Source: an uncultured Verrucomicrobiae bacterium (GTDB lineage Bacteria > Verrucomicrobiota > Verrucomicrobiia > Chthoniobacterales > UBA10450). From it: a stretch of 64,000 nucleotides of DNA. This document shows positions 8,136 to 13,855 of the stretch, one piece after another (the first letter of the stretch is position 1; each line of letters begins with the position of its first letter). Under the pieces are notes generated by a model. It saw only the letters and a list, made by a program, of their open reading frames with translations, made no database searches and was not told the DNA's origin. A program made the position numbers and the translations under genes. The DNA lies in contig CAWIBO010000002.1 in assembly GCA_963834385.1 (NCBI GenBank), forward strand, positions 832,001 through 896,000. Direction: 5' to 3'.

Positions 8136-9902
8136 TCACCCGGCGGTGACGCCTTCACCCGGGATTGCCGCCGGAGTCGCGGATCCCATCATTTTCCGGC
8201 TTCGCCGATAGCGCCAGACGGCCACGCCGACGAAAGCCAGGTCGGCCAGGACAAAGGCGCCGACGTAATTTTCGCCGCCAATGCCGAACCCGTAACTGTG
8301 CAACCCTTTGCCCAGGACAAAATTCACTCCATACCAGGCCATGAGCACGGTCAGGAAACAAACCACGCTCGCCACCACCAGCCCGAACTGGGTCCACCAG
8401 CCGGCCAGGCGGCCGTGCAGCGTGACGATATAGGAGAGCAGCGCGATCAGCGCCCATGTTTCCTTCGGGTCCCAGCCCCAGAATCTTCCCCAGGAATAGT
8501 TTGCCCAGACGCCACCGAGAATTGTCCCGGCGGCGAGCAGCAAAACGCCCAGCTGCAGAACGCGGTAAAGCCAGAAGTGCATCGGCTGGTCCGCCCGGGC
8601 GGCGACCGGATCGCGCGCGTAACGCCAAAGCAGGATGTGCCCAAAACCCATGGCCAGGGCAAAGGCGCCATAGCTGAGCGTGATTGTGAGCACATGGACC
8701 GTGAGCCAGAAATTGTCGCGCAGGACCGGCACCAGGGGATCGATGCTGGAGGGCATGGCAATCGGCATCTGGTGCACCAGGAGGAGCGAAAGGAGGGAAA
8801 CCGGCAACGCCGCCAGAAGATAGATCGTGGTGCGATAACGCAGGAAAAAGAGCAGCCCGAGGATCGAGACCGTGATCGAAACCCAGATGACGGACTCATA
8901 CATGTTTGTCACCGGAGGACGCCCGGCGATAAGGCAGCGCAGGACAATGGCGGTGGCATGGAAACCAACGGCGAGCACCGCGGTGATGATTCCGGCCATC
9001 CGAAGCCAGCCGGTCCGCCCGCGAAACGAAGCGATGCCCAGGAAGACCAGCGCCAGGCCGTAGCCAAGGGCCGCGCGGTAAAACCCGTCAAAATGATTGT
9101 AGAAATATTCCCGCTGCAATTCGCCTTCGCCCGGATAGATCGTCGGGCTTAGAGCCCGCAAAGTTTCGCGCAGACGGGTCGAGGCGAGCGAAAAATTGAA
9201 CTTGTCGCCCCGGGTATAGGCCTGGGCCATGGCCTGGAGGTGCGGTTGCACGGGCGCAAACTGCGCCTCGGTGTAATAGGTGGAGAAGGCCGGTGGGACC
9301 ACCCAGGGTTGGACCGCCGACTCCTTCCCGGGGACCAGCAGAAAAGCGCTCCCTTCCTGCATCCGGGCAAACCGGATCAGGCGATCGCTCACGTTCATGA
9401 CCTCGTTTTGCAGCCGCGAAAGCGGCTTGTCCGCCTGGCGCAGCGCGTGCGCCTCGTTCGCCAGTCGGTTTAACTCCGGCAACGGGCTGAGCTGCGCGAA
9501 GGAGAACCGGCGTTGCTGCGCCGGCAGGCCGAGCGCCTCCTTTAATTCGCCGAGCGAGACCAGGATCATCGGTTCCTCCTGCCACTTGTGCGTGTCGAGC
9601 AGCATGGAGAGCGCCCAGTCGCTCGCCGACCAGCGCCGGCCGGCGGCTTTTACGCTCGATTTGCCGGTGATCCGGACCAGCGTCTCCCGCGCAAAAGTGT
9701 CCACCGGTTTGCGCCGGCCCCCTTCCTGGATCGCGAGCAGCCCGAACTGACGGAAGTTCAGGCCCGCTGAATCAACCCGTTCCGGTTCCTGCGCCGGGAG
9801 GGAAAGCAGGGGCCAGAGGAGGAGAATGGCGAGGGGGAACCAGCGATTTTTCAAAGCCGCCCAATCTACGGGCAGACGGCTCCCGCGCCAGCCCGGTTTC
9901 AT
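8136..9902 (-). CDS. ccsA: Cytochrome c biogenesis protein CcsA/ResC (system II); start uncertain (9902 or 9854)
   Basis: WWD motif WANYSWGRFWGWDPKETW, GLHSYG, N-terminal GGRRKPVDT periplasmic domain. Confidence 0.92.
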   Translation of the reverse strand: MKPGWRGSRLPVDWAALKNRWFPLAILLLWPLLSLPAQEPERVDSAGLNFRQFGLLAIQEGGRRKPVDTFARETLVRITGKSSVKAAGRRWSASDWALSMLLDTHKWQEEPMILVSLGELKEALGLPAQQRRFSFAQLSPLPELNRLANEAHALRQADKPLSRLQNEVMNVSDRLIRFARMQEGSAFLLVPGKESAVQPWVVPPAFSTYYTEAQFAPVQPHLQAMAQAYTRGDKFNFSLASTRLRETLRALSPTIYPGEGELQREYFYNHFDGFYRAALGYGLALVFLGIASFRGRTGWLRMAGIITAVLAVGFHATAIVLRCLIAGRPPVTNMYESVIWVSITVSILGLLFFLRYRTTIYLLAALPVSLLSLLLVHQMPIAMPSSIDPLVPVLRDNFWLTVHVLTITLSYGAFALAMGFGHILLWRYARDPVAARADQPMHFWLYRVLQLGVLLLAAGTILGGVWANYSWGRFWGWDPKETWALIALLSYIVTLHGRLAGWWTQFGLVVASVVCFLTVLMAWYGVNFVLGKGLHSYGFGIGGENYVGAFVLADLAFVGVAVWRYRRSRKMMGSATPAAIPGEGVTAG

Positions 9903-9943
9903 CCCTGGCTTGCGGCAAACCTTTTCCTCCGCGAGAGACGCCG

Positions 9944-10582
9944 ATGCCGAAGCGGCCTCTTTCACCCTCACGCATCGCGCCCGGTTTTACCCCGGCCGAA
10001 CTGCGTTCGCTGCGCGCCTTGAAAACACCGCGCGGGGTGCAGCAGTTTCTCGATCGCATGCCGTATCATCTCGCCGGCACCGCCTGGTCGCCCCGGCGGG
10101 TGCTCCGCGAGCGAACCGCCCATTGCCTCGAGGGGGCCCTCTTCGCCGCCGCCGCCCTGCGCGTCCTCGGTTATCCGCCCCTCATCCTCGATCTCGAGGC
10201 GGACCAGGACACCGACCATGTCCTTGCGGTCTACCGCGTCGGCGGGCACTGGGGTTCGGTGGCCAAGTCGAATTTCACCGGCTGCCGGGATCGGCTCCCG
10301 GTCTATCGCACCCTGCGGGAACTCGCCCTCAGTTATTTCCACACCTATTTCAACCTGCGCGGCCAGCGCACCCTCCGGCGTTTTTCCCGCCCGGTGAACC
10401 TGGCCCGCTTTGATCGGCGGCAATGGATGACCACGGACGAAGACCTCTGGTTCATCGCCGAGCATCTGGTCGATCTGCCGCATCGCGCACTTTTCTCTCC
10501 CTCCGTGGCCCGCCGGCTCACTGTGGTCGATCCGCGCACTTTCGAGGGGGAAATGGTGGGCCATCGCCGGAAATCGGAATGA
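9944..10582 (+). CDS. Transglutaminase-like (vasohibin-like) cysteine peptidase, hypothetical
   Basis: AHCLEGA, DHVLAVY, WGSVAKSN, YRTLRELA; ATGA-coupled to the next gene. Confidence 0.75.
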   Translation: MPKRPLSPSRIAPGFTPAELRSLRALKTPRGVQQFLDRMPYHLAGTAWSPRRVLRERTAHCLEGALFAAAALRVLGYPPLILDLEADQDTDHVLAVYRVGGHWGSVAKSNFTGCRDRLPVYRTLRELALSYFHTYFNLRGQRTLRRFSRPVNLARFDRRQWMTTDEDLWFIAEHLVDLPHRALFSPSVARRLTVVDPRTFEGEMVGHRRKSE

Positions 10583-11250
10583 AGCTCGATTTTTCCCGCT
10601 GGCGCGGGCCGCTCCTTTTTGCCCTCCTGCTCCTCGGGCTCTTCCTGGCCGCGCGCCAGTTCCCCCTCCTCGGGTGGATTGAATCGTTTCGGGTCTGGGC
10701 GGCCGGCTTCGGTTTCCTCGGCGTCCTCATCTACGGCCTGGTTTATGGCCTGGCCGCCCTGCTCCTCATGCCCTGCCTGCCGTTCTCGGTCTTTGCCGGC
10801 TTCACCTTCGGCTGGCTCGGCGGCCTTCTTGCCGTCAACCTCGGCATCGCCCTCGGCGCCGCCGGCGGTTTCCTGATCATCCGCGCCACCGCCCGCGGAA
10901 AACTGGCCCGGCGGATCGAGAAGAATCCCCGTTTCCGCGCCATCGACGACGCCATCGCGCGGGAAGGCTGGAAAATCGTGGGGCTTCTTCGCATGTGCCC
11001 GGTGCCGTTTGGCCTGACCAACTATCTTTATGGGCTGACCGCGATCGAGTTCTGGCGCTATCTCGCCGCGACCATGGTCGGGATGCTGCCCGGAAACGCC
11101 CTCTTCGTTTACCTTGGGGTCATTGGAAAAAAGACGCTCGACGGCCCCCGGCATCCGCTTGAATACGGCGCCGCCCTGCTCGCCCTCGCCGCCATGATTG
11201 CCGTGGTGATCATCCTCCGGCGGATTGCCCGCCGGACGGCCCGGCTCTGA
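10579..11250 (+). CDS. TVP38/TMEM64 (DedA/VTT) family membrane protein
   Basis: AGFTFGWLGG, LLRMCPVPFGLTNY, ATMVGMLPG. Confidence 0.88.
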   Translation: MKLDFSRWRGPLLFALLLLGLFLAARQFPLLGWIESFRVWAAGFGFLGVLIYGLVYGLAALLLMPCLPFSVFAGFTFGWLGGLLAVNLGIALGAAGGFLIIRATARGKLARRIEKNPRFRAIDDAIAREGWKIVGLLRMCPVPFGLTNYLYGLTAIEFWRYLAATMVGMLPGNALFVYLGVIGKKTLDGPRHPLEYGAALLALAAMIAVVIILRRIARRTARL

Positions 11251-11318
11251 ACGAACGGAATACGCGCGAGGGCGTCGTCCTCCCCGCGCTTTCGTGCGAA
11301 GGTTCGCTCGTCGCCCCC

Positions 11319-12371
11319 ATGCCGGTCCCGCCTCGCGCCATCATTCACCTCGACATGGATTGCTTCTACGCGGCCATCGAGGTGCGTGATCAACCCCGGC
11401 TCAAGGGCAAACCGGTCGGCGTCGGCGGCGCGCGTGACCGGCGGGGCGTCCTGACCACCTGCAATTATGAGGCCCGCGCTTTTGGGGTCCGCTCGGCCAT
11501 GCCGACCTTCATGGCCCTGCAGCGTTGTCCCCAGCTGATCATCGTGCCTACCCGCTTCGATGTTTATCGCCGGGAATCGGCCGTGATTCGCGCCGTTCTC
11601 CACCGTTTCACTCCCCTGGTGGAGCCGCTCTCCCTCGATGAAGCCTACCTCGATGTCACCGCTCATCCGGGCGCGCCCGGCCCGCTCGCCGAGGTCATTC
11701 GCCGCCTCATCTTCCAGAAAACGCGCCTGACCGCCTCCGCCGGGATCGGGCCCAACAAACTCGTGGCCAAGATCGCGAGCGATCTCAACAAGCCGAACGG
11801 CCAGTGCGAGGTCGCCCCGGAAGCTGTGCCGGAATTCATGGCGCCTCTCCCGATCCGGAAACTGCCGGGCATCGGCGAAGTGACCGGGCGAAAACTCGAG
11901 CGCCTGAAAATTGTCACCTGCGCCGACCTGCAGCGGCTCGGGCGCCCGGAACTGATCGAGCGCTTTGGCCGGTTCGGTTACGAACTGTTCGATCTCAGCC
12001 GCGGTCTGGACGACCGGCCGGTCGAGCCCGACCGCGAGCGCAAATCGCTCAGCAACGAGGAAACCTTTTCGCGCGATCTCGCCACGCTGCGTGAGGCGGA
12101 GGAAAAGCTGCCTGAACTTTTCGAGGAACTGATGGCGGAACTGGCCGTGAAAGAACCGGGCCGTGTCATCGCCGGGATCGTCCTCAAACTCAAGTTCAAC
12201 GATTTCACCCGGACCACGGTCGATCGCGCCGGCCTGGAACCGACCCTGGAGAATTATCGGCTCCTGCTGGGGGAAGGCTTCGCGCGCACCGGCAAACCCG
12301 TCCGGCTCATCGGCGTGGGAGTCCGCTTCGCCCCCGCCGCCCTCGCCCAGGAACAACTGCCGCTCCTCTAA
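11319..12371 (+). CDS. dinB: DNA polymerase IV
   Basis: IIHLDMDCFYAAIE, CNYEARAFGVRSAM, SLDEAYLD, AKIASDLNKPNG. Confidence 0.96.
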   Translation: MPVPPRAIIHLDMDCFYAAIEVRDQPRLKGKPVGVGGARDRRGVLTTCNYEARAFGVRSAMPTFMALQRCPQLIIVPTRFDVYRRESAVIRAVLHRFTPLVEPLSLDEAYLDVTAHPGAPGPLAEVIRRLIFQKTRLTASAGIGPNKLVAKIASDLNKPNGQCEVAPEAVPEFMAPLPIRKLPGIGEVTGRKLERLKIVTCADLQRLGRPELIERFGRFGYELFDLSRGLDDRPVEPDRERKSLSNEETFSRDLATLREAEEKLPELFEELMAELAVKEPGRVIAGIVLKLKFNDFTRTTVDRAGLEPTLENYRLLLGEGFARTGKPVRLIGVGVRFAPAALAQEQLPLL

Positions 12372-12376
12372 CACTC

Positions 12377-12430
<54 letters not shown>

Positions 12431-12454
12431 TTCCAATCTCATCGTCGCTGCTGC

Positions 12455-12598
12455 TCACACGCGCTTCGCCCTATCGAATGCTTTAAGCATTCGATCCTCA
12501 ACCGGGCCATCTCGAATTTCCTGCTCCACCCAGAGTCTGATTAGCACATTCCCGTGGCAACAATCCCCTTGCCCCGGCTCCACTCCTCGAGGTCGCAT
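12455..12598 (-). other. 47-aa small ORF, possibly a remnant of a DUF4326-like gene
   Basis: MRPRGVEPGQGDCCHGNVLIRLWVEQE...; CHGxVL resembles the C-terminal motif of DUF4326. Confidence 0.25.
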
Positions 12599-12631
12599 GA
12601 CGGGGGGGCTCCACAGGCGCCGCCCGCAATC

Positions 12632-13225
12632 TCACCGCACCTGCCAGTACTTGTGGTCCTGCCGCGAAAGGGCCCAGTCAGGATGGGTCTTCATGAACTC
12701 GAGGCATTGCGCAAGGGAATCGGGGTCCTCGTTCCCGTCGCGCCAAAGCGGCTGCACGTAGCGATACATGAAGGAGGTGGTCCGGAGCGGCTCCTCCCAG
12801 TCCTGCAGACTCAGCCCGTTCAGGCCGGGCACGAGCTTGATCTCGTTCCCGTAGCGCTGCAGGAAATCGGTCCGGTGAGGCGAGACCGAAATCCAGTCCA
12901 CCGGCGGAATCACTCTCTTTTGTCCGCTCGTCGCGATCGCAAGGGAGAAACGTTTGGCCCGGAGCGCCCGCAGCAGCGGCAGCAGGTCGTGATCGGTCGG
13001 TTCGCCTCCCGTGATCCAGGCCCACGGATCGATCATGGCCGGGGTCAGGGCCGCGGCGCGCTCGGCGATCTCTTCCGCGGTCAGCGTTTCCTTGCGCGAA
13101 TAATCGGTATCGCACTCGGGGCACCCGACCGAGCAGCCCGCCAGCCGAATAAAAGTCTGCTGGAACCCGCGCAGGTGGCCCTCGCCCTGGATGGTGAAAA
13201 ACAGTTCGGCCACGGGATACTTCAC
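12632..13225 (-). CDS. queE: 7-carboxy-7-deazaguanine synthase QueE-like radical SAM enzyme
   Basis: ELFFTIQGEG, FIRLAGCSVGCPECDTDY (CxxxCxxC), ITGGEP, WISVSP, LSRQDHKY; GTG start. Confidence 0.85.
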   Translation of the reverse strand: MKYPVAELFFTIQGEGHLRGFQQTFIRLAGCSVGCPECDTDYSRKETLTAEEIAERAAALTPAMIDPWAWITGGEPTDHDLLPLLRALRAKRFSLAIATSGQKRVIPPVDWISVSPHRTDFLQRYGNEIKLVPGLNGLSLQDWEEPLRTTSFMYRYVQPLWRDGNEDPDSLAQCLEFMKTHPDWALSRQDHKYWQVR

Positions 13226-13390
13226 GCCGTTCCCTAACGCAGGAGAGGCGGCGCGTCGAAGAGTTTGCGCGCCCCCTTCCCGGGCGCTTCTCCCCGGCCA
13301 GCCGCCCATGGCTAAGTGTTCCCCCGGATGAGCAGTTGCAGAGGACCCCGGGTTGAGGCTACCATGTCCTGCCTCGAAGGCCTCGATCCT

Positions 13391-13855
13391 ATGCAAATGT
13401 TCAATCCCAATCGCCGTAACGAACCTGCCACTCCGCCGCCCGCACCTCGTCCGGCCGGGACTCCCGCTGCCGCTGCCGGGGCGGGACCAGCCGCCCAGCC
13501 AACCGCCGGGCGCGCCTCTCTCTCGCGCGGGGTTTCCATCAATGGCTCGCTCAAGTTTCGCGATGAACTGGAGATCGATTGCGAGGTGGAAGGCACGATC
13601 GATTCCGCCGGCCGCCTGACCGTGGGCAAAAACGCGCACGTTAAAGGTGATATCAAGACCAAGTCTGTCGTGGTTCAGGGCATGGTCGAGGGCAATATTA
13701 CCGTGACGGAACGCTGCGAGCTTCGTGCCGGGTGCACCCTGCACGGCGATATCGAGGCGCCCCGCCTGGTGGTGGACGATGACGCCACCTTTATGGGGAG
13801 CGCCAAGATCACCAGCAAAGGGCGCCCCTCAACGGCTCCTTCGCAAGGCTCGTAA
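13391..13855 (+). CDS. Bactofilin (polymer-forming cytoskeletal protein)
   Basis: Pro/Ala-rich N-terminus, then GVSINGSLKF..IDCEVEGTI..LTVGKNAHVKGDI..VVQGMVEGNI..GDIEAPRLVVDDDATFMG. Confidence 0.9.
   Translation: MQMFNPNRRNEPATPPPAPRPAGTPAAAAGAGPAAQPTAGRASLSRGVSINGSLKFRDELEIDCEVEGTIDSAGRLTVGKNAHVKGDIKTKSVVVQGMVEGNITVTERCELRAGCTLHGDIEAPRLVVDDDATFMGSAKITSKGRPSTAPSQGS

Follow-up and report, generated by a model that had tools for sequence, protein, structure and literature searches.

A predicted stand-alone cysteine peptidase of the CPR-C4/vasohibin-like family in an uncultured Verrucomicrobiae bacterium

INTRODUCTION

The locus analyzed here raises the question of what a vasohibin-like peptidase does in a bacterium. 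Within a 64,000-nucleotide stretch of DNA from an uncultured Verrucomicrobiae bacterium (the window), a sequence-only reading had picked out a 212-aa open reading frame (ORF), here P0001, as a vasohibin-like peptidase with a Cys-His-Ser triad, and had noted a coupled DedA gene and a nearby bactofilin gene, treating any link to cytoskeletal tail processing as speculation. Here, we ask to which family P0001 belongs, which residues would carry out catalysis, and what its substrate might be.

RESULTS

The P0001 gene and its annotated sites lie at the following positions of the window.

9944..10582, plus strand: gene for a CPR-C4/vasohibin-like family cysteine peptidase of 212 aa (P0001), with an ATG start and with sequence and model matches
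10124..10126, plus strand: codon of C61, the predicted catalytic nucleophile (C61 of CPR-C4, C169 of VASH1), from alignment and conservation
10208..10219, plus strand: D89-T90-D91-H92, where H92 is H93 of CPR-C4 and H204 of VASH1, and D91 is the zinc ligand D92 of CPR-C4
10265..10273, plus strand: K108-S109-N110, where S109 is S221 of VASH1 and T110 of CPR-C4, and N110 takes the place of R222 of VASH1
10283..10294, plus strand: C114 (L115 of CPR-C4, L226 of VASH1) to the invariant R117, from alignments and conservation
10346..10348, plus strand: Y135 (Y247 of VASH1), from the profile alignment; Tyr in 90/97 and Phe in 7/97 thinned homologs

We found that P0001 is encoded by a single-copy gene in the host assembly and that the ORF and its sequence signal are far beyond chance. 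Its GC content by codon position (0.70/0.50/0.77) resembles that of the adjacent genes; the overlapping plus-strand frame at 9826 gives 0.75/0.69/0.56. Matches to P0001 at E≤1e-3 were obtained for 7998 of 8000 scored candidates, and the search matched 1465 clusters at 50% identity. The five sequence blocks begin at residues 32, 59, 91, 101, and 118. These blocks, the 212-aa frame, and C61, H92, S109, H60, and N110 were all where the sequence-only reading had put them, and the recomputed spacings, 31 residues from C61 to H92 and 17 from H92 to S109, agree with it. The reading had also proposed a cytoplasmic protein without a signal peptide, and the N terminus indeed has no hydrophobic stretch, as judged by hydropathy (highest 11-residue Kyte-Doolittle mean, 0.23). 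Four of the five VASH1 blocks that it listed were found in the VASH1 alignment, and the catalytic-Cys block was seen in the VASH2 alignment only. Scans of P0001 gave no Pfam match at E≤0.01 and no NCBIfam match at E≤0.1, and neither a sigma-70 promoter nor an intrinsic terminator was found in positions 9600 to 12600.

To assign P0001 to a family, we compared it with known proteins by sequence and by fold. A PDB sequence search matched CPR-C4 at E=3.5e-42 over residues 15 to 192. A profile built from P0001, 10 of its 119 matches, and 61 near-full-length sequences of 150 further matches found CPR-C4 at E=9e-80; 12 of the 13 other matches at E≤10 were VASH1 chains, each of them weak (E of 0.075 to 0.23). 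For the AlphaFold model of P0001 (pLDDT of 94.8), Foldseek returned CPR-C4 with a TM score of 0.84 to 0.85, followed by VASH1/2 at E values of 7e-6 to 3e-4. The Z-ranked fold search gave the same order: CPR-C4 came first (Z of 28.9, rmsd of 1.9, 205 residues aligned), followed by 20 VASH entries (Z of 12.1 to 12.9, rmsd of 3.3 to 3.9, about 155 residues aligned) and one more VASH entry at a Z of 11.1. The next fold was LapG, with a Z of 8.6, and transglutaminases, PNGase, pseudomurein endo-isopeptidases, and N-acetyltransferases scored 6.6 to 7.7. Thus, the profile alignment, Foldseek, and the fold search all support vasohibin homology, and the canonical Cys-His-Asp folds rank below it, at a Z of 8.6 or less.

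The ESM Atlas returned unnamed or transglutaminase-like clusters, one of which had PF14822 on 12% of its members. The vasohibin Pfam family PF14822 gave no match to P0001 at E≤1, and PF01841 matched below its gathering score (E=0.12; 13.1 bits, with a cut-off of 23). The nearest named relatives are from Chthoniobacterales/Verrucomicrobiota metagenome-assembled genomes, at 65 to 78% identity. Taken together, P0001 is almost certainly a member of the CPR-C4/vasohibin-like family with a catalytic Cys-His pair. The vasohibin-like reading was thus right but already known: the bacterial family received its name in 2016 (text of PMC4866520), and its crystal structure has been in print since 2022 (text of PMC9108980).

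Conservation was scored on 273 proteins and 225 loci, which yielded 420 near-full-length matches (partial matches were left out), 401 of them distinct and 97 remaining after thinning at 70% identity. Among these 97 homologs, C61 and R117 are invariant (97/97 each), and H92 and Ser or Thr at position 109 are each kept in 96/97. The triad positions are therefore conserved among homologs, as the sequence-only reading expected. Other positions follow at lower levels: D89 in 92/97, K/R108 in 91/97, D91 in 84/97, Y41 in 81/97, N110 in 77/97, H60 in 72/97, R/K51 in 65/97, and Asp at position 176 in 31/97. Position 114, where Leu, Cys, or Ile occurs, is Leu in 90/97 and Cys in 4/97; P0001 has Cys. In the pairwise alignment with CPR-C4, S109 pairs with T110, A107 with S108, and V176 with D182, and position 114 aligns gap-free with L115 but is Cys in P0001. 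The residue map to VASH comes from weak profile alignments (E of 0.075 to 0.23, or about 0.002 via the sister Ser-Arg subfamily described below) and not from structural residue pairs. In the ungapped alignment to VASH1 residues 204 to 247, H92, S109, N110, C114, and Y135 correspond to H204, S221, R222, L226, and Y247, respectively.

The sequence-only reading had named Ser as the third catalytic residue. Two crystal papers do not support this: in both, the third role falls to the backbone carbonyl of a Leu (L115 in CPR-C4 and L226 in VASH1, corresponding to C114). The text of PMC9108980 gives the CPR-C4 triad as Cys-His-Leu (backbone carbonyl), allows other residues at the Leu position, and has a Tyr position the catalytic carbonyl; a term search of its main text returned no mention of T110. 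According to the text of PMC6937246, the catalytic His of VASH1, H204, makes its bond to the carbonyl of L226. A Cys-His-Ser/Thr triad had been proposed for vasohibins and vasohibin-like proteins in 2016 (text of PMC4866520), and the text of a 2023 classification paper still gives vasohibin a CHS triad, with the His bonded to the Ser (PMC10318531). In our homologs, the hydroxyl at 109 is better kept than Leu at 114, which fits a side-chain role for the former and a backbone role for the latter, and the mix of Leu, Cys, and Ile at 114 is as expected if the backbone alone matters. This contrast alone does not decide which residue orients the His. The carbonyl-positioning Tyr of VASH1 is, we assume, Y247, and Y135 is probably its counterpart in P0001. 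By analogy with the two crystal structures, it is likely that a backbone carbonyl, and not Ser, is the third member of the triad, and the Cys-His-Ser label is probably outdated.

The hydroxyl at position 109 is most likely kept for substrate binding. VASH1 loses activity when S221, K168, R222/R223, or K145/K146/R148 is mutated (text of PMC6937246), and S221 and R222 set the specificity of VASH for a C-terminal Tyr (text of the review PMC8358657). The basic neighbors of the VASH1 Cys and Ser are replaced in P0001, K168 by H60 and R222 by N110, as the sequence-only reading had noticed. The VASH carboxylate clamp is therefore incomplete in P0001, and its substrate probably differs from that of VASH1. 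The two crystal papers disagree on charge: the text of PMC9108980 gives a negative VASH pocket and a positive tubulin, and in that of PMC6937246 the reverse holds. With the charges of PMC6937246, the positive pocket of CPR-C4 resembles the VASH pocket and offers no contrast to it.

The VASH Ser-Arg pair that P0001 lacks is kept in a subfamily of Acidobacteriota. Nine Acidobacteriota loci (L201 to L209) and L221 have Arg-Ser-Arg at positions 108 to 110, matching S221-R222 of VASH; they are 33 to 38% identical to P0001 and form one clade with a support of 100. PF14822 matched 9 of these 10 proteins at E≤0.25, one of them above the cut-off (E=8.3e-6). A profile of the subfamily finds VASH at an E of about 0.002, and its model has Z scores of 13 to 14 to VASH and 24 to CPR-C4. 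Thus, by profile and by fold, the Ser-Arg subfamily is closer to vasohibins than P0001 is. Its R-S-F-R motif lines up with the VASH2 basic loop, the last Arg corresponding to R51 in P0001; that loop would be K145 to R148 of VASH1, the two being equated by pattern and not by alignment. The C-terminal half differs in the divergent Ser-Arg group of the Acidobacteriota and Chloroflexota samples (L201 to L209, L221, and L224). The 2016 family, which lists Acidobacteria in the text of PMC4866520, may already include such Ser-Arg proteins. The subfamily is better suited than P0001 for testing carboxypeptidase activity.

We next describe where the peptidase occurs. In the host order, it was present in 14/15 and 13/15 genomes of two families and in 0/120 genomes of the other 14 families; over all 151 genomes of the order, 28 had the peptidase and 135 had bactofilin, including all 28 peptidase carriers. 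Of 301 in the host phylum, 4 matched strongly and 2 marginally. The gene was found in 38/201 genomes of an Acidobacteriota sample and 12/201 of a Chloroflexota sample, counts that include one genome each flagged as unpublished (G471 and G443, respectively), which are also part of the conservation, SET, neighbor, and tree sets. None of 85 pattern matches in viral contigs was confirmed as a relative of P0001, and the plasmids and phages searched contained no relatives. A search for fusions among proteins of 525 to 2000 aa (lengths of 372 to 524 aa were left out) gave three matches in 7999 candidates, each of them a singleton covering 25 to 69% of the query. A 967-aa frame in G450 was not counted as a fusion because it overlaps a 901-aa ORF on the opposite strand, which we take, from how it reads, to be an acyl-CoA dehydrogenase/hydratase. 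The homolog tree was made by a quick method with weak deep support, and we claim no root or order of events from it. In this tree, the homologs of the second family of the order (L160 to L169 and L066) are in a mostly Thr-type clade, apart from P0001. This placement may reflect separate acquisitions of the peptidase within one order.

The neighbors of P0001 in the window are as follows.

8136..9971, minus strand: CcsA-type cytochrome c assembly gene (PF01578), divergent; longest frame, the true start being probably nearer 9900
10579..11250, plus strand: DedA/VTT membrane protein of 223 aa (PF09335, E=8.7e-25), ATGA-coupled to P0001
11319..12371, plus strand: DinB/Pol IV-type DNA polymerase, an incidental neighbor
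13316..13855, plus strand: bactofilin (PF04519), 2.7 kb downstream of P0001

A 227-aa ORF without a Pfam match lies directly upstream of the bactofilin gene (12554 to 13237, plus strand). Unrelated genes fill the roughly 6.7 kb between the CcsA-type gene and another cytochrome c assembly gene, which is ResB-like (PF05140; 16679 to 18676, minus strand).

Both the ATGA coupling to the DedA/TVP38 gene, in which the P0001 stop overlaps the DedA start at 10579 to 10582, and the bactofilin gene at about 3 kb, on which the sequence-only reading drew, are real. However, a comparison of 220 homolog loci did not bear out a link to either. These loci include repeats of one genome, and many are short (of the first 144, 121 had at least 700 nt downstream and 88 had at least 3500 nt). 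The DedA and bactofilin genes of the window were near homologs in 0/220 loci, DinB in 1, CcsA in 6 (downstream there), and the Ca exchanger in 4. None of DedA, bactofilin, DinB, and CcsA was retained as a conserved partner of the peptidase. The DedA coupling and the closeness of bactofilin are private to this genome, and nearly all genomes of the order carry bactofilin. Thus, the neighbors of P0001 are incidental, and the cytoskeleton and DedA ideas are without support.

Homolog neighbors vary by lineage. Of 61 genome loci, 19 have a CapA-domain gene convergent on the homolog, and 17 have a class II ribonucleotide reductase. Acyltransferase_3 was directly downstream of the homolog in 6/6 loci tested, alanine dehydrogenase was nearby in 8/10 loci from the second peptidase-bearing family, and gamma-glutamyltranspeptidase was within about 4 kb in 3/10 loci of the host family. 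A HAD hydrolase adjoins the homolog in 6/30 Acidobacteriota loci, and SBP_bac_5 (peptide-binding) was directly upstream in 4/11 Chloroflexota-sample loci scanned and only in those four. The convergent CapA protein (L038:5612-8251, minus strand, and 18 other loci) has 860 to 975 aa, of which about 590 at the N terminus gave no Pfam match, and a C-terminal CapA domain (PF09587); it is often preceded by a DUF4424/F5/8-type C protein. Phage tail sheath genes are just upstream of the homolog in several Chthoniobacterales loci (L013:2597-4495, L014:1575-3872, and L019:3215-4822, minus strand); with a tail tube domain in L014, these are possibly a contractile injection system.

Small SET-domain proteins (PF00856) were more frequent in peptidase-bearing genomes than in the others. 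In the host order, SET was found in 27/28 peptidase-positive and 18/123 peptidase-negative genomes (cut-off of 1e-3). In the phyla, where the cut-off was 1e-8, the counts were 23/38 versus 31/163 in Acidobacteriota and 4/12 versus 23/189 in Chloroflexota; related genomes are not independent. The one host-family genome without the peptidase (G355) is also without SET, and the signal in the order amounts to about two family-level events. Carriers without SET made up 15/38 in Acidobacteriota and 8/12 in Chloroflexota. Of 17 Acidobacteriota genomes in the Ser-Arg score band, 10 of which were inspected at the sequence level, 14 had SET; outside the Ser-Arg group, it was found in 9/21 Acidobacteriota carriers. 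A tblastn search with six SET frames of the order placed a SET gene beside the peptidase in 0/220 loci, a set without identified CPR members; divergent SETs may escape this search. The host genome has a small SET-domain gene outside the window (G000:C2:146280-146528, minus strand). We treat this possible pairing as a lead only.

DISCUSSION

We propose that P0001, as a member of the CPR-C4/vasohibin-like family, is probably a cytoplasmic, stand-alone cysteine peptidase with a narrow specificity. Its fold, family, and conserved residues were observed here; the mechanism is carried over from the CPR-C4 and VASH1 crystal papers. By analogy with these enzymes, the C61 thiolate would attack the peptide bond, and H92, its orientation set by the backbone carbonyl at position 114, would serve as the general acid/base. 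Less firmly, S109 may hold a carboxylate near the cut, helped by three conserved basic residues (K108, R117, and R51). This carboxylate could belong to an acidic side chain or, as for S221/R222 of VASH1, to the free C terminus of the substrate. P0001 would then trim or cut a single acidic protein or peptide, or a small number of them, but not tubulin. We lean toward an acidic or C-terminal substrate and are inclined to doubt that P0001 is a strict carboxypeptidase. The quenched-casein signal of CPR-C4 points to internal cuts and not to C-terminal trimming.

Could P0001 be a housekeeping endopeptidase of broad specificity that serves protein turnover or the scavenging of amino acids? The CPR-C4 authors suggested a housekeeping-type role, and their enzyme, whose pocket is positively lined, cleaves quenched BODIPY-casein at nM levels, in an assay for which the method section and a term search of PMC9108980 returned no catalytic-mutant or inhibitor control. 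The text of that paper describes the vasohibin-like CP01A family as common among small-genome CPR bacteria, yet it expects high specificity. The many pocket residues beyond the catalytic pair that are near-invariant also fit a specific substrate, and the SBP_bac_5 gene, which would suit scavenging, is confined to four loci. Thus, a housekeeping role is unlikely.

Another acyl-enzyme reaction, with P0001 as an isopeptidase, deamidase, or acyltransferase acting on a modification such as a gamma-glutamyl group, is also improbable. The fold includes transglutaminases, PNGase, pseudomurein endo-isopeptidases, and N-acetyltransferases, and the CapA-domain and gamma-glutamyltranspeptidase genes near some homologs would suit such chemistry. 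However, those folds fall far below VASH and CPR-C4 in Z, and CPR-C4 showed protease activity (text of PMC9108980). The two neighbor genes occur in close relatives only, mostly on the opposite strand, and were not seen among the Acidobacteriota and Chloroflexota neighbors scanned.

It is rather improbable that the family consists of prokaryotic protein-tail editors, true carboxypeptidases that remove the last residue of a specific protein in a pathway shared with the small SET lysine methyltransferase. This reading draws on the conserved S/T109, the SET enrichment in three samples, the joint absence in G355, and the Ser-Arg match to VASH. If it were true, the tubulin code would have a forerunner in bacteria and archaea, and the Ser-Arg subfamily would stand closest to vasohibins. 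Finally, a Cys-His-Ser carboxypeptidase that edits a cytoskeletal tail (bactofilin, FtsZ, or Btub) or acts together with the product of the coupled DedA gene is very unlikely: S/T109 is conserved, the CHS triad has been proposed repeatedly, the ATGA overlap is real, and 28/28 peptidase-bearing genomes of the order have bactofilin, but neither gene accompanies the homologs, bactofilin is far more widespread than the peptidase (135 versus 28 of 151 genomes), the crystal papers favor the carbonyl, the bactofilin tail is small and polar, and the one PF00091 match in the host is an FtsZ-like frame with a basic tail.

We therefore retain the narrow-specificity peptidase as the preferred reading and compare it with known systems, beginning with the most distant. 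LapG/BTLCP and the transglutaminase-like Cys-His-Asp proteases (PF01841) share the superfamily fold with P0001 (Z up to 8.6), but P0001 has Ser, not Asp, where these proteases carry their third residue. LapG is periplasmic and calcium dependent (text of PMC4866520).

VASH1/VASH2 (PF14822), the tubulin tyrosine carboxypeptidases, share with P0001 the core fold (Z of 11 to 13), the C169/H204/S221/Y247 positions, and the order of the blocks, but they are only 12 to 16% identical to it. The structural alignments begin at residue 108-109 of VASH1 and residue 21-22 of P0001, and the SVBP-wrapping N-terminal helices of VASH are absent; CPR-C4 likewise has no SVBP-binding helices (text of PMC9108980). 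Tubulin_C (PF03953) and TTL (PF03133) gave no match in the 89.6% complete host genome, and the control was silent as well in each case.

The vasohibin-like family of Sanchez-Pulido and Ponting (2016) comprises bacterial, archaeal, and algal relatives with Cys-His-Ser/Thr, and the members listed in the text of PMC4866520 are from Acidobacteria, uncultured bacteria, and GW2011 archaea. That text names no Verrucomicrobiota member, and we matched P0001 to the family by description, not by sequence. No natural substrate of the CPR-C4/vasohibin-like family is named in the literature searched, which covered subscription papers thinly.

The closest known system is CPR-C4 (PDB 7OB6, 7OB7, and 7PJO), of the subfamily CP01A (Cornish et al. 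2022; text of PMC9108980). This subfamily has 794 members from CPR and non-CPR bacteria, with VASH homology, and the text describes CPR-C4 as a dimer with a dispensable Zn site and no informative neighbor genes. P0001 is 36 to 39% identical to CPR-C4 over about 195 to 205 aligned residues and shares its fold, C61, the His at 92/93, the hydroxyl at 109/T110, a stand-alone gene, and the lack of a signal peptide. It differs in having C114 for L115 and A107 for S108. Of the tri-aspartate Zn site, which is not required for CP01A (text of PMC9108980), P0001 keeps D83 and D91, and the third ligand, D182, is V176, so that the set is incomplete. CPR-C4 is from CPR, whereas the P0001 host is near Chthoniobacterales, and non-CPR members are already noted in the text of PMC9108980. 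With P0001, a family for which a structure and a generic assay exist gains a Verrucomicrobiota member, and the substrate of this family, once found, would show the pre-tubulin role of vasohibins.
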